34,265 bases of DNA from a virus (taxonomy: Duplodnaviria; Caudoviricetes): the IMG/VR virus record IMGVR_UViG_3300027808_000086, positions 1 to 34,265 of that record. The stretch is one strand, 5' to 3'. A model generated the notes under the pieces. That model worked only from the letters and a program-made list of their open reading frames with translations, was not told the origin of the DNA and made no database searches. The translations under genes were made by a program, and so were the position numbers. Below, piece after piece: positions 11,202 to 34,265 of the stretch (the stretch's first letter is position 1; every line of letters begins with the position of its first letter).

Positions 11202-11234
11202 GATATAAAGTATTGTTTATCTAAATATTAGTTA

Positions 11235-13696: not shown

Positions 13697-13944
13697 GTCC
13701 AAAAAAGAAAAACATAGAAATGACAAAGTTATATTGTTTAAGTCAATTACTTTTAGAAAGTTTGGATATACTTAAACCAACTACCGCTAATATGGTTAAA
13801 TATAAGGCTGATTTAACAGCTCTTTGTGAGGAATTGAATAACGTAACTGCAAATAGTGAAACAGTGCTTAAAAGTACTTATTTTAGCTCTATTTGTTCAA
13901 AAGTAGATACGATTTTGAGAAAACAATTTGAAAAAAATATGTAA
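13693..13944 (+). CDS. Hypothetical protein
   Basis: 83-aa helical ORF coupled to the methyltransferase gene. Confidence 0.6.
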   Translation: MSPKKKNIEMTKLYCLSQLLLESLDILKPTTANMVKYKADLTALCEELNNVTANSETVLKSTYFSSICSKVDTILRKQFEKNM

Positions 13945-14726
13945 TGATAAAAATAACAAATGAATGTAATATGGCTCTTATGGCATCACAAGAAAGCGAA
14001 AGTGTAGATTTAATTTATTGTGATATTCTTTATGGAACTGGTAGAAATTTTGGAGATTATAAAGACTTAAATCCAATTAGAAGCGAAATAGAAACCCATT
14101 ATTTACCACGATTAAAAGAAATGTATAGAGTTTTAAAACCAACAGGAACTATTTATTTACAAATGGATACAAGGATTAACCATTGGATACGTTGCATTAT
14201 GGATGATATTTTTAATTATAAAAATTTTAAAACTGAAATAGTTTGGTTTTATAATTCACAAGGTAAATCAAATAAAGAATGGAATAGAAAACACGATGTA
14301 ATTTTACATTATACAAAAGGAAAACATTGGACTTTTAACGCAAAAGATGTAATGGATAGTATTACAGATTTAACTTATAAAAGATTTAAAAGTGAAATTG
14401 ATAAAAAAGGATATTATACTTGTTTTAAAAATGGCAAAGAATACAAATACTATTTAGAAAATGGAAGTTTACCAAAAGATTGGTTTGAAGATATTACATA
14501 TATAAGTAGAGATAATAAAGAACTTACTGGATATGCAACACAAAAACCAAAAGCATTAATTGAAAGACTTATAAAAGCAAGTTCAAACGAAGGAGATACA
14601 GTTGCAGATTATTATTTAGGTTCTGGAACAACAGCAGTAGTTTGTAAACAATTGAATAGAAATTTTATAGGTTGCGATATTAATTCAAAGGCTATTGAAA
14701 TAACAAATAATAGATTAATAAAATAA
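13944..14726 (+). CDS. DNA amino-methyltransferase (N6A/N4C, beta class)
   Basis: VDLIYCDILY (motif IV variant), RVLKPTG, YATQKP..LIERLI, DYYLGSGTT (motif I), IGCDI. Confidence 0.88.
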   Translation: MIKITNECNMALMASQESESVDLIYCDILYGTGRNFGDYKDLNPIRSEIETHYLPRLKEMYRVLKPTGTIYLQMDTRINHWIRCIMDDIFNYKNFKTEIVWFYNSQGKSNKEWNRKHDVILHYTKGKHWTFNAKDVMDSITDLTYKRFKSEIDKKGYYTCFKNGKEYKYYLENGSLPKDWFEDITYISRDNKELTGYATQKPKALIERLIKASSNEGDTVADYYLGSGTTAVVCKQLNRNFIGCDINSKAIEITNNRLIK

Positions 14727-18020: not shown

Positions 18021-18551
18021 ATGAAAGCAATAGCAACAGCTTTAGTAAAAGCACAATCGGAAATGAGCAACCCCGCAAAAGGAGCTACAAATCCTTTTTT
18101 CAAATCAAAATACGCTGATTTAAATGCAGTACGTGAAGCAGTTATTCCTGTACTAAATGCGAACGGAATAAGCGTACTACAGCCAATTAAAAATGTAGAT
18201 GGGAAAAACTATGTTAATACAATATTATTACACGAAAGCGGTGAAAGTATTGAAAGTTTCACTGAAATAATCTACAGTAAAATTAACGATGCACAGGCGC
18301 AAGGTTCAGGAATTACGTATGCAAGGCGTTACGGTTTACAATCATTTGTTTGCGTTGGAGCAGATGATGACGATGGGAATAAAGCAACTCAACCAGCTAA
18401 AAAAGAGCCAATACAAAAGCCTACTTTATTACAAGATAGTGAATCATTTAGAAAAGCATTAAAATATATGTCTGAAGGTGGCGATATTCAAATAATTGAA
18501 ACTAAATATATATTAACAGCTGAAGTAAAAACAGCACTAACAAATAAATAA
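18021..18551 (+). CDS. erf: ERF-family single-strand annealing recombinase
   Basis: NPFFKSKYADL, T.LLHESGE, Q.QGSGITYARRY.L....G..DDDG signature. Confidence 0.92.
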   Translation: MKAIATALVKAQSEMSNPAKGATNPFFKSKYADLNAVREAVIPVLNANGISVLQPIKNVDGKNYVNTILLHESGESIESFTEIIYSKINDAQAQGSGITYARRYGLQSFVCVGADDDDGNKATQPAKKEPIQKPTLLQDSESFRKALKYMSEGGDIQIIETKYILTAEVKTALTNK

Positions 18552-20740: not shown

Positions 20741-20949
20741 AACCAATATTTGTATGTAGTTTGCCAATTACCGATTTATCTCCAGAAACGATTGAAAATA
20801 TTAAATTTAATTTAAAAATGGAATTATCGGAAAATTATCACGGTTTAATTGTGTCTGATGATACAATTACCAAAATAGGATTTGAGTTATACAATTCAGA
20901 ACTTGAGGAAAAAGATTTTGAAGATTTAAAACTAAAATTAAAATTATGA
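20737..20949 (+). CDS. Hypothetical protein
   Basis: 70-aa coupled ORF. Confidence 0.6.
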   Translation: MKPIFVCSLPITDLSPETIENIKFNLKMELSENYHGLIVSDDTITKIGFELYNSELEEKDFEDLKLKLKL

Positions 20950-21167
20950 CACCAAAAGAAAAAGCAAAAGAGTTAATATTAAAATACACTAATTTAACTG
21001 ATAAATGTGATTGTTTAGAATATATGTGCGTATGTTTTTCGATGTATGATTTTAAAGCCAAACAATGTGCATTAATAGCTGTTGATGAGGTATTAAGTGT
21101 TCCTTATTTATTAAAAAGTGAAAGTTGGTTTTACAAAGAAGTTAAACAAGAAATAGAAAAATTATGA
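20946..21167 (+). CDS. MTPKEKA-family paralog 1
   Basis: MTPKEKAKEL...AKQCALIAVDEV...EVKQEIEKL. Confidence 0.7.
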   Translation: MTPKEKAKELILKYTNLTDKCDCLEYMCVCFSMYDFKAKQCALIAVDEVLSVPYLLKSESWFYKEVKQEIEKL

Positions 21168-21271
21168 CACCAAAAGAGAAAAAAGATTTTCAGATAGTAA
21201 CGTTACAATTTTTAACAGTTGCTTCAATTTCAGTAATTATAACAGCAATAATAGTAATGATATTATGTTAG
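21164..21271 (+). CDS. Small membrane peptide with MTPKEK start (35 aa, not in ORF track)
   Basis: MTPKEKKDFQIVTLQFLTVASISVIITAIIVMILC. Confidence 0.55.
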   Translation: MTPKEKKDFQIVTLQFLTVASISVIITAIIVMILC

Positions 21272-21672
21272 ATAAAACCCACTTATGGGAACAAGGAATT
21301 GTCCAGCTTTTAAACCTTGACGGTTGGGAGTTGGAGTGGTGCGGGGGAGCATTTGAGCATTACGATGCAATAGGTAAGACCCCTAAAGGATTTGATTGTA
21401 TAATTGAATTTAAATTAAGAAGTGCATACTATCCGACAAAGGTATTAGAAGTTTATAAATACGATAAGCTAATGAGCGAAAATAAAGCACATAAATTTTA
21501 TTATGTATTTGATTGTAAAGGAAACTATTTGTATCATTTAAACACGCTTAAACTACCTGAAACAGAAACATTAACAGCAAGCGTTAAGACTTACTTTGAG
21601 AATAAAAATAAAATAAACAAGCCAGTGTATATGCTATCAGAAAGCCAAGCGAGTATATTAGTTAAATACTAA
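21265..21672 (+). CDS. PD-(D/E)xK-family nuclease
   Basis: E...HYDA...IIEFK.R catalytic pattern. Confidence 0.65.
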   Translation: MLDKTHLWEQGIVQLLNLDGWELEWCGGAFEHYDAIGKTPKGFDCIIEFKLRSAYYPTKVLEVYKYDKLMSENKAHKFYYVFDCKGNYLYHLNTLKLPETETLTASVKTYFENKNKINKPVYMLSESQASILVKY

Positions 21673-21775
21673 ATGTTAAAGTTTTCTTAATTTATTTAAT
21701 AAGATAGTATTTTATTAATATAGTTGATGTATATTTGTACCAGCAATGAAGCTAAAGAAAAAAACAAATATTATG
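21661..21775 (+). promoter_or_regulatory. Early promoter module 3
   Basis: GTTAAATA...TGTTAAAG, TATTAATA 21713-21720, TATATTTG 21730-21737; leader TACCAGCAATGAAGCTAAAGAAAAAAACAAATATTATG nearly identical to module 1. Confidence 0.75.
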
Positions 21776-21940
21776 ACAACTCTAGAATATAAAAACCAAG
21801 CATTAATTTATAATAGAAATTTAAAAACTATTAAAACACAATTGAATCAAAAACAAATATCTGAATTAAAAACAAAATATAATTGTATTGATGATGGTCA
21901 TTTAGCTAAAATTACAATGTTAAGAGGAATAATAATTTAA
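21773..21940 (+). CDS. Small early protein (55 aa)
   Basis: Likely start ATG 21773, by analogy with the module 1 leader. Confidence 0.6.
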   Translation: MTTLEYKNQALIYNRNLKTIKTQLNQKQISELKTKYNCIDDGHLAKITMLRGIII

Positions 21941-21949
21941 TAAAAATAC

Positions 21950-21975
21950 ACAGAGGGACATCAGTGTCCCTCTGT
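21950..21975. other. Perfect 11-bp hairpin before the tRNA-like element
   Basis: ACAGAGGGACA-tcag-TGTCCCTCTGT, without a long T tract. Confidence 0.8.
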
Positions 21976-21980
21976 TAAAA

Positions 21981-22045
21981 TGTGGATTGACTGAAATAGG
22001 ATATAGTTTAAATAGTGTATTGGTTCGAATCCAATATCCACATCA
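21981..22045 (+). ncRNA. tRNA-like RNA lacking the anticodon arm
   Basis: Acceptor TGTGGAT/ATCCACA, D arm ACT-GAAATAGGATAT-AGT, T arm ATTGG-TTCGAAT-CCAAT; only 11 nt between D and T arms. Confidence 0.7.
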
Positions 22046-22066
22046 AAAACAATAAACATAAAAATT

Positions 22067-22288
22067 ATGATACCAAAAGAAAAAGCAAAAGAAATAATAA
22101 ATAAATTAATTTTCATTCCTAATGGAGAAAAATTTCAAATTATATCAATGGAAGATGAAAAAAGAGCAATAAAATCTGCATTAATTGCAATTGATATAGC
22201 TTTAGAATTTATTAATAATAGAGAAGCATTTAATAAAAATATTTATTTGCTTGAAGTTAAAAATGAAATTAAAAAATTAAACAACTAA
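22067..22288 (+). CDS. MTPKEKA-family paralog 2
   Basis: MIPKEKAKEII...SALIAIDI...EVKNEIKKL. Confidence 0.7.
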   Translation: MIPKEKAKEIINKLIFIPNGEKFQIISMEDEKRAIKSALIAIDIALEFINNREAFNKNIYLLEVKNEIKKLNN

Positions 22289-22298
22289 AACAAATAAA

Positions 22299-22514
22299 AT
22301 GAGAACACTATTAGAAAGATTAAAGCCAGAGTATTTAGAATTATTAGAAGCAGATGCAGAAAACTTTATATTTTTAGTTGAAAATGTTAAAAAAGAATTA
22401 AGCGAAAATAATAACGTACATACATTAAAATTTATAACGGCATATCGGATGTCTCTATTTTGCGAAGTTTCTTTAGGAATTGTAGAAATTAATAACTTAT
22501 TTTTAAAAGAGTAA
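22299..22514 (+). CDS. Hypothetical protein
   Basis: 71-aa ORF. Confidence 0.6.
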   Translation: MRTLLERLKPEYLELLEADAENFIFLVENVKKELSENNNVHTLKFITAYRMSLFCEVSLGIVEINNLFLKE

Positions 22515-22515
22515 T

Positions 22516-22683
22516 ATGAAAACATTTGAAGTCGAGGGTTGGTATCGTTATAACGGTGGAGACGAAAAAGATTATGAAATTGAAACTATTGTAGCATTAA
22601 CGCCAGAATGTGCAATTATAAGTTTTTTAAAAATGTTTGAAGTAATTAGATTTTTTAAAATTGATATAAAAGAAATAGTATGA
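22516..22683 (+). CDS. Small hypothetical protein (55 aa, not in ORF track)
   Basis: MKTFEVEGWYRYNGGDEKDYE...; ATGA-coupled to the next gene. Confidence 0.6.
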   Translation: MKTFEVEGWYRYNGGDEKDYEIETIVALTPECAIISFLKMFEVIRFFKIDIKEIV

Positions 22684-22868
22684 CTTACGAGCAATGGCAG
22701 ATAGTAGAAGCAGAAATGCGAGAGCTATACGCAAAAGACAATACGCTCACACATTTTGATATTACTATTCAAATAAAAAAAGTAAACATAGAACCAAAAA
22801 GAGCAAGAATTAATATAAAAACTTATAATGATGAGCGAAAAAAATCGATGGGTACTATTAGAAAATAG
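22680..22868 (+). CDS. Hypothetical protein
   Basis: 62-aa ORF. Confidence 0.55.
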   Translation: MTYEQWQIVEAEMRELYAKDNTLTHFDITIQIKKVNIEPKRARINIKTYNDERKKSMGTIRK

Positions 22869-23031
22869 CGAACCACATACAATTTTACTAACTGAAGAGG
22901 AAGCAATGAAATTAATTGCGATACAAAGGTTCGATAAGTCAAAATGGGAAATATTCTTTGACGAATACTACGAATACATAGAATACTATTCCGAAGAAGA
23001 GAAAGAACAAATAAACCGTTTAATACCTTGA
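22828..23031 (+). CDS. Hypothetical acidic protein
   Basis: 67-aa ORF. Confidence 0.55.
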   Translation: MMSEKNRWVLLENSEPHTILLTEEEAMKLIAIQRFDKSKWEIFFDEYYEYIEYYSEEEKEQINRLIP

Positions 23032-23034
23032 ATT

Positions 23035-23253
23035 ATGACACCAAAAGAAAAAGCAAAAGAATTAGTAGAAAAAATTTATGAAGAAATAGCATATTATCCA
23101 GAAAAATCATTGTGTTATTTTGAATGGAATAATGCAAAAGATACTGCTTTAATAGCAGTTGATGAAATTATTAATAGTGTAGCTAATGAACACGTTTCTG
23201 ATATATATGATAAGTATTGGAATAAAGTTAAAAAAGAAATAAAAAAAGTATGA
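23035..23253 (+). CDS. MTPKEKA-family paralog 3
   Basis: MTPKEKAKELV...AKDTALIAVDEII...YWNKVKKEIKKV. Confidence 0.7.
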   Translation: MTPKEKAKELVEKIYEEIAYYPEKSLCYFEWNNAKDTALIAVDEIINSVANEHVSDIYDKYWNKVKKEIKKV

Positions 23254-23960
23254 TAGTTTTAGTAGATGCAGACAGCCTTATTTGGTCAAGCTGCTATAAG
23301 CAAAAAGAGCACCCAGAAGACGAACAATATCATTCGATAGAAAATGCTAAGTTAAAGTTTGACGAAGTGTTTATGGCTATTATAAACACCATTGAAGAAA
23401 TCCACGAAATAGACAAGGTTTTGACTTTTGCAAATGCTTTAGGTAATTTTCGTAAACAAATTTCTAAGAGCTATAAAGCAAATAGAATAGGACGTGAAAT
23501 ACCACCTATTTTAAACGAATTGCAATCGTACGTAAAAGAGCAATACGAAAGCATAGCAGGTTATGGAGTTGAAACTGATGATGTAGTAGCCACGTACTGG
23601 ACAAACTTAACTAATACGTTTGGGCGTAATGAAGTTATAATAGTTTCAATAGACAAAGACTATAAGCAATTACCCTGTTTGATGTATGATTATCATATTA
23701 AGAAACAATGTTATTACGATATAAGCAAAGAGCAATCATTATACAACTTTTACGAGCAAATGATAATAGGAGATACAGCAGACAATGTTAATTTTTGCAA
23801 AGGTTATGGTTCAAAGTATGTTGAGAAAGCATTTAAAGACTGTTTAAGCGAATATTCTTTAATTAAGGTAACATTTAGCCTATTTAAAAAGATATACAAG
23901 CACAAGGCACGTGAAAAGTTTATTGAATGTAAATTATTATTAAAATTAAAAACAGACTAA
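23250..23960 (+). CDS. 5'-3' exonuclease / flap endonuclease (PolI N-terminal, T7 gp6-like)
   Basis: VDADS, NFR....SYKANR, ETDDV, SIDKDYKQ, GDTADNV..CKG.G motifs. Confidence 0.9.
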   Translation: MIVLVDADSLIWSSCYKQKEHPEDEQYHSIENAKLKFDEVFMAIINTIEEIHEIDKVLTFANALGNFRKQISKSYKANRIGREIPPILNELQSYVKEQYESIAGYGVETDDVVATYWTNLTNTFGRNEVIIVSIDKDYKQLPCLMYDYHIKKQCYYDISKEQSLYNFYEQMIIGDTADNVNFCKGYGSKYVEKAFKDCLSEYSLIKVTFSLFKKIYKHKAREKFIECKLLLKLKTD

Positions 23961-24095
23961 CGTCCGTCCTGTGGCTTTGTCTTGTTGCCGATTAAACACA
24001 AGACCAACTTTAAATTAAAAACAGAAAATGGAAAGTACAAAACCAACATTAAATGAAGCCGAAAACGGCAATAAGTCAAAACCGCTGTTAGTGGC
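23955..24095. mobile_element. Integron attC-like imperfect inverted repeat
   Basis: CTAAC 23957-23961 ... GTTAG 24087-24091 cores; 20-nt arms 23971-23990 and 24066-24085 pair with 2 mismatches and 2 G-T. Confidence 0.6.
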
Positions 24096-24249
24096 TGGGC
24101 AAATTGTTTGGTTAGATTATGACTTAGCAAACAAATCAAAGGTTGAAGTTGTAGAGCAAACACCCCAAAGAATGTTTACTACGGTAAAAGACCCTAAAGG
24201 TGATTATATATGGTCGGTTATGACATATCGTCTGATGCCTTGCCACTAA
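24028..24249 (+). CDS. Cassette-borne hypothetical protein (SH3-like beta pattern)
   Basis: Starts inside the hairpin loop, reads across GTT, and stops in the TAA of GCCACTAAC. Confidence 0.65.
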   Translation: MESTKPTLNEAENGNKSKPLLVAGQIVWLDYDLANKSKVEVVEQTPQRMFTTVKDPKGDYIWSVMTYRLMPCH

Positions 24250-24282
24250 CTATTTGCTAACCGCTATAAATACAAATCTTTT

Positions 24283-24465
24283 ATGAAGTCATATACTAAA
24301 AATATTACGGTTAACGTTTCTGAAATTCAGTTTAACACTTTAGAAAAAATAAGAGCTAATAACATAAAAGTAGGCAATTTTATACGTGAAGCAATAGCCG
24401 AAAAGATTAAACGAGATTACAAACAATTAATATTAAAACCTAAAAAATCGGAATGTCCTTTTTAA
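24283..24465 (+). CDS. Ribbon-helix-helix regulator (putative)
   Basis: KNITVNVSE..F..L...GNFIREAI.EK pattern. Confidence 0.65.
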   Translation: MKSYTKNITVNVSEIQFNTLEKIRANNIKVGNFIREAIAEKIKRDYKQLILKPKKSECPF

Positions 24466-24475
24466 AAATAAAGCA

Positions 24476-24700
24476 ATGAAATTATATACAGCAAAAGAAA
24501 TGTGTAAAATTTTAGAAATAAAATTAACAACTTTTTACAAGTTACGATTTGAAAAAAATATAAAGCCAGTAAAAACAGTTAAGAATTTCAATTACTTTTA
24601 CAAAGAGCAATTTGAAGATGACGTACCAAGATATTATCCTATTAAAACACACGAGGTTTATTATATTTACGAATCTAAAATGAATACAAATAAATTATGA
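24476..24700 (+). CDS. Excisionase/MerR-like HTH protein
   Basis: LYTAKEMCKILEI..TTFYKL...IKP pattern. Confidence 0.6.
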   Translation: MKLYTAKEMCKILEIKLTTFYKLRFEKNIKPVKTVKNFNYFYKEQFEDDVPRYYPIKTHEVYYIYESKMNTNKL

Positions 24701-25314
24701 TTACAATTACAAACGAGGATAATATGCTTTTAATGTCACGTTACCCTGATAATTATTTTGATTTGGCAATAGTTGACCCGCCTTATGGATTAGGAAATAA
24801 ATTAACTCAAGGCGGTACTTGGTCTAAAAAATGGCAAACAAAAGGAGCTGATTGGGATAAATTACCAAATAAAGAATATTTTGATGAATTAAAAAGAGTA
24901 AGTAAAAATTGGATTATTTGGGGCGGAAATTATTTTATTGAATACTTACCAAATTGCAGATGCTTTTTAGCGTGGCATAAACCTTATATGGATGGAATGC
25001 ACTCAATGAGCAATGTTGAATTAGCTTTAACTTCTTTTGATACAAACGCTAAAAAAGTTTCTATAAATAAAGATTTAGGAGGTGAAGAAAGAATCCATAT
25101 TACTCAAAAACCAATTAAGTTGTACAAATGGATTTTAGAAAATTATGCAAAAGAAAATGATAAGATACTGGATACACATTTAGGTTCAGGTTCAATTGCA
25201 ATAGCTTGCCACGATTACGGATTTGAATTAACCGCTTGTGAATTAGATAAAGAGTACTTCGACAAAGCAATGCAAAGAATAAACAATCATATAGCACAAC
25301 AAAAACTATTTTAA
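24697..25314 (+). CDS. DNA amino-methyltransferase (N6A/N4C, beta class)
   Basis: DLAIVDPPY, IIWGGNYF, H.TQKP..LY.W, ILDTHLGSGS, ACELD. Confidence 0.92.
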   Translation: MITITNEDNMLLMSRYPDNYFDLAIVDPPYGLGNKLTQGGTWSKKWQTKGADWDKLPNKEYFDELKRVSKNWIIWGGNYFIEYLPNCRCFLAWHKPYMDGMHSMSNVELALTSFDTNAKKVSINKDLGGEERIHITQKPIKLYKWILENYAKENDKILDTHLGSGSIAIACHDYGFELTACELDKEYFDKAMQRINNHIAQQKLF

Positions 25315-33395: not shown

Positions 33396-33538
33396 TACAA
33401 CACATAATGGAAATGCTAAAGTTAGCAGAGCAATACGAGCACAATGAAATAATAGCAATTGCAAAAGGAAAATATGAATATCCTAAATCAAACTATCAAC
33501 TTTTTAAGAAGTTATTAAAAATAAAATTAAATAAATAA
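33392..33538 (+). CDS. Small protein preceding tape measure (48 aa, not in ORF track)
   Basis: MIQHIMEMLKL...EIIAIAKGKY...; ATGA-coupled; its 3' part recurs at 1..119. Confidence 0.6.
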   Translation: MIQHIMEMLKLAEQYEHNEIIAIAKGKYEYPKSNYQLFKKLLKIKLNK

Positions 33539-34265
33539 GATATGGCTATTGAGAAAGTAATAGATTTACAAATAAAAAGCAATGCAGACCAAGCTGAAAA
33601 ATCGGTTGGAAGTTTAAAAAGCCAATTAAGAGAAGCACAGGCTGAGGTTGCTACATTATCCGACAAGTTTGGAGCAACTTCACGAGAAGCGATTGAAGCA
33701 GCTAAAAAAGCGGGAGAGCTTAAAGATAGGATAGGGGATGCAAAAGCATTGACCGAAGCATTTAATCCAGACGCTAAATTCAAGGCTTTAAGTAGTTCAT
33801 TAAGCGGTGTAGCTGGTGGATTTGCAGCGGTGCAAGGTGGTATGGCTTTATTTGGTAGTCAATCTGAGGATGTAGAAAAGACTTTATTAAAAGTACAATC
33901 CGCAATGGCACTTTCGCAAGGTTTACAATCGATTGGCGAAAGCGTAGATTCATTTAAGCAATTAGGAGCTGTTTTAAAAAGCACTTCCGTAGTTCAAAAG
34001 GTAATGACAGCCGCAACAGCAGCTTATACATTTGTTACTGAAGCATCAACAGCGGGTTTAAAACTATTCAGATTGGCTTTAATTGGTACGGGCGTAGGTG
34101 CTTTAGTAGTTGGAGTTGGTTTATTAATTGCTAATTTCGATAAGGTTAAAAAAGTAATAATGAACCTTATACCTGGTTTAGCTTCGGTTGGAGAATTTAT
34201 AGGTGGTATTGTAGATTCAGTTACTGACTTCGTAGGTGCAACTTCCGATGCTACAAGAGCCGTTG
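33420..34265. repeat. Right copy of imperfect terminal direct repeat
   Basis: 846 bp versus 837 bp at the left end. Confidence 0.95.
33542..34265 (+). CDS. Tape measure protein, second allele, truncated by window end
   Basis: MAIEKVIDLQIKSNADQAEKSVGSLK...; open to the window edge. Confidence 0.8.
   Translation, partial: MAIEKVIDLQIKSNADQAEKSVGSLKSQLREAQAEVATLSDKFGATSREAIEAAKKAGELKDRIGDAKALTEAFNPDAKFKALSSSLSGVAGGFAAVQGGMALFGSQSEDVEKTLLKVQSAMALSQGLQSIGESVDSFKQLGAVLKSTSVVQKVMTAATAAYTFVTEASTAGLKLFRLALIGTGVGALVVGVGLLIANFDKVKKVIMNLIPGLASVGEFIGGIVDSVTDFVGATSDATRAV

Follow-up and report, generated by a model that had tools for sequence, protein, structure and literature searches.

A gene cassette whose reading frame begins inside its hairpin site, very probably part of an integron-like system in Bacteroidota and their phages

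To our knowledge, the origin of integron cassettes is unsolved. Bacteroidota are among the phyla with integrons according to the accessible part of PMC8618304, and attC clusters have been reported in virulent phages, including Polaribacter phage P12002L (Qi et al. 2023, PMC9892861); in the accessible text of that report, P12002L_attC1 is the one of six sites that was not recombined by IntI1. In integrons, as described in the available excerpt of PMC5027507, the folded strand is cut at AAC and the other strand at the opposite box, and removal of extrahelical bases favours the other (top) strand. Reading frames within integron sites have also been described: ORF-11 and ORF-18 of attI1, and short ORFs in attC sites, act mostly by translational coupling (PMC8876359, from the portion available). 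Our literature search, with subscription papers and preprint supplements beyond its reach, found no account of the recombinase system or of the shuffling of site-encoded leaders described below. We report here a phage segment that is very probably a genuine cassette with one gene, belonging to an integron-like system found in Bacteroidota hosts and in their phages.

The window, which is the whole 34,265-nt record IMGVR_UViG_3300027808_000086, is a near-complete phage genome of Flavobacterium type with a GC content of about 30%. Its ends (1-471 and 33420-33899) repeat each other, with 97% and 90% identity only; such an imperfect overlap may derive from two different strains or from an assembly error. 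The earlier note had described the phage as integrase-less, and indeed a profile search found no tyrosine recombinase (PF00589) in this one record, with all 14 control genomes positive. Several of the small early-region genes (20933-23074) have near-identical first ~35-50 nt (families D4, D5, D9 and D12), and an AT-rich repeat ending in TATATTTGTA at 11216, 11760, 15661 and 21677 (D3, D7 and D8) is probably the phage's host-type promoter. Two DNA methyltransferase genes (13944-14726 and 24697-25314) lie outside any site and have a common 45-nt end (D13); genes similar to them are cassette cargo in related phages.

The locus lies on the forward strand. On its left is a 5'-3' exonuclease gene (23250-23960; phrog_107, E 3e-41; PF02739), whose stop codon TAA (23958-23960, within GACTAAC) doubles as the TAA of the left core, TAAC (23958-23961); breakpoints in sequence pairs and contig pieces point to this core as the place of the main crossover, TAA|C. 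The left core opens a 133-nt attC-like hairpin site (23958-24090), defined by family search, covariation and geometry, that ends in the right core, GTTA (24087-24090), where breakpoint profiles and contig pieces place a second exchange point, the switch from leader to cargo. A start codon and 21-codon leader (24028-24090), identified from the ORF and family comparison, occupy the loop and 3' arm of the site. They are followed by 52 codons of cargo (24091-24246) encoding a small protein without assigned function, which is delimited by other phage contigs, homologues and the outer-arm pattern of its ends. The complete ORF, of 73 aa from the ATG at 24028, stops in the TAA of a second TAAC (24247-24250). 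This TAAC begins an attI-like dock (24247-24270) that is not a hairpin and consists of TAAC, 12 nt and GCTATAAA, as judged by conservation, spacing and contig pieces; the motif CTAAC-tatttg-CTAAC lies at 24246-24261. The constant right neighbour of the dock is a 60-aa gene (24283-24465), probably ribbon-helix-helix according to homologues, a model and fold searches. The positions given in the earlier note for the exonuclease stop, the hairpin arms, GTTAG (24087), the ATG (24028) and the right boundary were all verified.

A BLAST search with 351 nt found matches to the hairpin only, in ten records representing four cultured Flavobacterium phage types; the remaining ten of the 20 hits were short and at chance level. 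All four phage types carry arrays of TAAC...GTTA sites. The window's genome has a single site and so does not count as a CALIN, which takes at least two sites and no integrase. A 24-nt pattern from the 3' arm recovered 78 viral stretches and 17 genome stretches, and a site caller at a score of at least 28 made 344 calls in 870 kb of real loci compared with 5 in 177 kb of shuffled DNA, such that about 7% of calls are expected to be false. The arrays alternate hairpin modules (TAAC...GTTA) with cargo modules (GTTA...TAAC) and end at a conserved non-hairpin dock. Among 60 aligned sites, 16 of the 18 predicted pairs are altered on both sides, and 92.8% of paired cells are complementary, against 55.8% for shuffled sequences (none of 500 shuffles reached the real value) and 37-44% when the arms were slid; these covariation values are partly circular and overstated, since most of the 60 sites were chosen by arm-pairing score. 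The family thus shows attC-type inverted AAC/GTT cores closing a covarying hairpin. Arm pairing is gap-free over at least 16 positions, with at least 11 Watson-Crick pairs in 316 of 350 sites. Single extrahelical bases, of which attC sites characteristically have two or three on the arm opposite the cleaved AAC, are absent from these 350 sites, which instead have a bulge of 2-4 nt on the AAC arm, and the sense strand forms the more stable fold at 298 of them. Sites in inverted orientation are rare (2 of 162 adjacent pairs), and in 165 of 169 viral inter-site segments the longest ORF is on the other strand than in the classical attC layout, where the gene lies upstream of its site on the top strand, meaning that the phage cassettes are inverted.

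The window's own copy is a poor representative of this family. Its arms (23971-23990 and 24066-24085) form Watson-Crick pairs at 16 of 20 positions by manual count, its arm score of 22 is inside the shuffled background, and the site alone folds no better than shuffled sequences (z of -0.21 and -0.54). Owing to a duplication of GTCC (23962-23969), its left core is followed by 8 extra nt, compared with 2-4 in 335 of 350 sites of the family. We attribute the weak hairpin of this copy to the 4-nt duplication, which may have fixed the window's cassette in place. The complementarity of the cargo ends, 9/9 in the core and 12/14 when extended, occurs once in the window, exactly here, compared with 0.26 times per shuffled window; this count is by itself modest evidence, and the main support is comparative.

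Comparison also shows that the leader and the cargo each occur with other partners. The window's 21-residue leader stands letter for letter on P0011, on P0013 and on the YopX-domain proteins P0014-P0016, and with one substitution on P0012; these other partners amount to four unrelated C-termini. Reciprocally, the window's cargo is found behind at least five other leaders (P0003; P0004; P0005; P0006-P0008; P0009), and the switch between leader and cargo is always at the GTTA core. The cargo DNA is present in three other phage contigs, where the preceding site differs each time and brings an in-frame ATG of its own, and there are nine further cargo homologues besides these; a metagenome scan with the cargo returned the window's own sequence only. 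In 71 contexts of the window's site family, the leader frame enters the cargo in the window's frame in 56 and in a second frame in six, and there is no fusion in nine (the left end being doubtful in four); the 58 fused ORFs of this family fall into 31 cargo groups that BLASTP finds unrelated. Across all site families, an in-site ATG opens a frame that extends at least 90 nt past GTTA in 108 of 238 sites, compared with 9 of 238 on the opposite strand. The larger set of 356 sites has 147 with such a leader frame, 30 of them with a Met within the next 10 codons, and 209 without a long leader fusion; in the window's ORF, the earliest Met within the cargo is residue 49. The frame class is constant within each of the ten leader-bearing cargo clusters, and the remaining six clusters are leaderless in every member. 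A stop codon lies in or near the core in 83 of 99 leader ORFs. In L147:2722 and L160, one cargo family stands behind leaders of two frames, with the register restored just past the core. The claim of a site-encoded N-terminus on interchangeable cargo is therefore borne out, with one leader on many domains and joints exactly at GTTA. The open frames predict that the in-site ATG is the translation start of the fused genes, and the leader is likely to be merely a portable translation start. Of the three findings that the earlier note named as fatal to its proposal, two (no cargo exchange, a peptide always attached to one domain) are plainly contradicted; the third was a lack of covariation, and the hairpin covaries across the family.

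The earlier note had read the segment from GTT to AAC as the cassette, fusing to the site at G/TT. In its strict form this reading makes the cassette the cargo plus the downstream site, with a routine crossover at G|TT and a new fusion at each insertion, and it draws on the complementary cargo ends and on the switch of the fusions at GTTA. Complementary ends fit a crossover at either core, so we tested the linkage of the site to each flank, using 356 oriented sites with 80 nt on both sides and dropping sites nearer an end; the pairs compared are not independent, and the loci were fetched with one site pattern and one dock pattern. Fifty-three pairs share only the upstream end, 30 share the site and the downstream start, 28 share only the downstream start and one shares all three, while no pair among the 356 sites shares the upstream end and the site alone. 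Likewise, one site family is kept in none of 16 clusters that share an upstream end and in 7 of 16 clusters that share downstream cargo. Since the site often stays with its downstream cargo and never with its upstream neighbour, the mobile unit appears to be the site plus the downstream gene, crossing over at TAA|C; such a crossover moves site and gene together, and routine insertion would therefore make no fusion. The absence of any shared upstream cargo and site without the downstream side, set against 53 upstream-only pairs, largely refutes the strict form; in addition, it is on the right-hand side of TAAC that the dock shows conservation, and host genes are on the other strand in chromosomal arrays. 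We consider the strict form very unlikely. What stands of the claim is that swaps do occur at G/TT. The reverse simplification, in which the site moves solely together with the gene downstream and fusions do not occur, was our early reading, and it is ruled out by the leader/cargo swaps and the linkage data.

Breakpoints lead to the same two positions. Identity breaks at the cores in all three pair comparisons (21, 103 and 44 pairs): in the 44 pairs that share the upstream end and whose sites are unrelated it ends right after TAAC-G, and the profiles of the 21 and 103 pairs break at GTTA. Contigs from seven public runs of seven studies gave a similar picture; run X1, from which the window itself may come, was left out. 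Among the matches listed, pieces end at 24090 in X2, X3, X4, X8 and X15, at 24250 in X5, X14 and X15, and at 23960-23962 in X3, X5 and X8, and begin at 24247 in X4, X5 and X8; the other pieces listed end inside the site or within 10 nt beyond it. The earlier note had also suggested looking in related phages for empty sites or swapped cargo, and swaps at the cores were found. The exonuclease gene is a constant left neighbour, and in 7 of 79 other loci (L010-L012 and L016-L019) its relatives have the same stop followed by other hairpin sites; the exonuclease gene is joined directly to the dock, as in an empty site, in none of 80 exonuclease loci. A contig of X2 that joins 23956 to 24475 was considered as an empty site and rejected, having about 750 other bases between, and is a replacement. 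The comparative data contain no recombination reaction or excised circle. These data suggest that both cores are used, with the left core, TAAC, apparently the faster exchange point of the two.

The swaps could alternatively be explained without a second crossover, if leader and cargo were joined once, at the birth of a cassette, from a small pool of template sites, and cassettes later moved by TAA|C only; different pairings would then be separate births. A common template would be expected to leave near-identical sites in unrelated surroundings, and 26 of the 29 site pairs with at least 95% identity differ on both sides (three share the downstream side and none the upstream side); sites with common cargo are also more alike (median 0.88, compared with 0.80). 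Near-identical sites on different cargo can thus arise from cassette making, and this counts against the main mechanism that we favour. On the other hand, 21 pairs have cargo starts that are 86-96% identical, outer arm included, behind unrelated sites, and the cargo is 84-89% identical among the window, L086 and L087 when the L086 site is only 61-64% alike, such that births alone would need repeated joining at one base. We regard separate births as unlikely, and continue to favour exchange at both cores.

The cargo ends have a structure of their own. The first and last 11 nt of the window's cargo pair as outer arms (5 bp, T-T, G-T, 4 bp), and positions 6 and 7 account for the two mismatches in the 12/14 noted earlier. 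In 211 segments, namely those of 244 in which four of the first five positions are complementary, the ends pair over 6 bp, have a T at position 7 in 211 of 211 (paired in one) and pair again over 4 bp, beyond which pairing ceases; the ends flanking one site on its two sides are not complementary to each other. This pattern bears on the possibility that single-strand annealing proteins of the phage swap modules at short common sequences, with selection for hairpins and frames cleaning up the joints. The phage does encode an ERF-family protein (18021-18551), and related sites have long arms in common, but unrelated sites have little beyond TGTTA in common at the joint, the invariant T points to protein recognition, and the dock is left unexplained. 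Annealing as the source of the exchange therefore seems to us quite unlikely. The cargo protein itself has no PHROG or Pfam match, its AlphaFold model is unusable (pLDDT 47), and its Atlas neighbours (DsrB, DUF1918, DUF3104 and R67 DHFR, all below 0.9) are leads only.

Sequence conservation at the dock lies on the right side of TAAC, the left side being variable. In 26 of 28 rows (some of them duplicates) a homologue of the 60-aa gene follows the dock, and the cargo end to the left differs every time. A search with the dock pattern yielded 95 distinct matches, among which there are 81 different left flanks; about 15 of the matches look by eye like chance matches with no cassette end; an intact homologue of the 60-aa gene follows 55 of the 95. 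The model of the 60-aa protein has a pLDDT of 85, and its best fold matches are CopG, AtaR, ParD and Arc, all with E > 0.4 and none significant; modelling and homologues together suggest that the product is probably a ribbon-helix-helix protein. The 10 nt past the dock TATAAA (24270-24282; L192-L307) co-vary with the N-terminal strand of this ribbon-helix-helix-like protein, in four classes of DNA/protein combination, two of whose DNA classes are palindromic; a co-varying operator and reading head suggests that the small protein regulates its own gene.

In the window, this small DNA-binding gene and not a recombinase gene follows the dock. In phage loci L097 and L113, a gene for a 267-aa tyrosine recombinase comes directly after the last TAAC of the array, and in Flavobacterium gillisiae (L312) a 347-aa tyrosine recombinase is encoded beside the array; a motif scan across the loci found four recombinases, L130 among them. 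All three Flavobacterium genomes searched encode close homologues of the recombinase, and in two of them (L327 and L328) the site beside the recombinase gene is TAAC, 12 nt, GCTATAAA, like the window's dock. A simple site of attI type thus lies by the recombinase gene in L097, L113, L312, L327 and L328, and the conserved dock, with the same spacing as at the host recombinase gene, supports the view that the window's right boundary is attI-like. The matches of three array-linked recombinases to TIGR02249 are broken into two stretches and reach 140-201 bits, below the cut-off of 265, and the L312 enzyme has 21 residues where VchIntIA spans 63, about 40 fewer; the IntI-specific insertion is absent from the array-linked recombinases examined. 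As for the idea that the phage relies on a host tyrosine recombinase, the candidate is a small tyrosine recombinase encoded beside arrays and docks, and it is not of IntI type. The recombinase link is one of adjacency, in two phage loci and four host loci, from which we infer that an array-adjacent enzyme acts on the window's phage, and that a recombinase rather than another process would make the G|TTA swaps.

Hosts carry the same kind of cassettes. A leader-bearing cassette of the window's family is present in the host arrays of L312 and L320, and in the L312 chromosome the place next to the dock is taken by a leader-bearing cassette; for this reason we think that phages and hosts share a cassette pool. 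Most genes in host chromosomal arrays are on the strand opposite to that of the phage genes, which is the classical layout. Locus L308, in Flavobacterium caseinilyticum, has eight sites; its cassette genes all run in the phage orientation, and it is probably a prophage. The host arrays also bear on whether the hairpin might chiefly be an RNA element governing how the following gene is translated, with mobility incidental. G-T pairs on the sense strand (57 of 60 at one position) and the start codon in the loop would suit such an element; the same sites are antisense to host genes, the cores, outer arms and dock would go unexplained, and Rfam gives no match in the window and chance-level hits only in four related loci. 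We consider a primarily RNA-level function extremely unlikely; RNA effects could be a side effect. The Flavo-1 RNA motif (RF01705; PMC2864571) is likewise a repeated structured element of Flavobacteria, but we rejected identity with it given the same Rfam result and aligned sequences that, in the accessible part of that paper, look unrelated.

We propose that the folded gene-sense strand is cut at TAA|C, which would insert site and gene together at the dock without a fusion. Occasionally the opposite strand would be used and cut at G|TTA, more rarely or more slowly than TAA|C, presumably because these hairpins lack the extrahelical bases that enforce strand choice; weak strand choice is a likely explanation of the two-ended exchange. 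Between two sites, recombination at G|TTA would connect the leader of one with the following cargo and set free a circle carrying the reciprocal joint, and selection would retain only in-frame joins. A phage without a recombinase would borrow the enzyme from its host or from a co-infecting phage. Since only 2 of 162 adjacent pairs contain an inverted site, opposite-strand events against the dock are presumably absent or purged, and the second event would run site by site or be strongly selected against. The whole mechanism, in which the site supplies the start and 21 residues and a host tyrosine recombinase exchanges modules at both ends, has in our judgement somewhat better than even prospects. 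A further-reaching version, in which a Bacteroidota Xer-like recombinase moves hairpin sites and cargo separately, both ordering cassettes at the dock and re-pairing leaders with gene bodies, and itself builds the cassettes and fusions, is a tentative proposal that we rate a little short of even.

This system is like integrons in its AAC/GTT cores, covarying hairpin sites, non-hairpin dock by a tyrosine recombinase gene in hosts, one-gene cassettes, stop codons often in or near the core, and a cleaved strand that is the more stable one. It is unlike them in that the neighbouring recombinases lack the IntI insertion and fall below the TIGR02249 cut-off, the sites have a 2-4 nt bulge in place of single extrahelical bases, the 11-bp outer arm is cargo-specific, the genes of phage cassettes have an inverted orientation and their start codon within the site, and exchange appears to take place at both cores. 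The cassette system proposed in the earlier note gains support from this exchange, but with neither extrahelical bases nor an IntI insertion it is not an integron proper. The available text of the P12002L report treats its sites as ordinary attC sites and does not mention leaders, a dock or another recombinase, and in it HattCI called one site of the window's family (PMC9892861). P12002L_attC1 has the layout of the window's family on the gene strand and precedes a methyltransferase gene, and P12002L_attC2 (L325:29160-29260) is an array-end site on the opposite strand, where other arrays have the dock. Like ORF-11 and ORF-18, to judge from the excerpt of PMC8876359 available, the hairpin site gives translation signals to the gene behind it through an ORF that overlaps the crossover point; unlike those ORFs, which belong to one attI site, the present frames are fused in frame at roughly four of every ten mobile sites and fall into three frame classes.

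The reciprocal examples that start from the window's gene indicate that a recombination site can be a reusable front end for unrelated proteins, which in related phages include many DNA methyltransferases. The system also suggests a reason why the only site of the family to have been tried with the standard IntI was not recombined. Should the second crossover be enzymatic, a gene body would gain both its start codon and a recombination site at a single stroke, a point relevant to the origin of integron cassettes; and a two-ended system, if true, would make the birth of cassettes directly testable.
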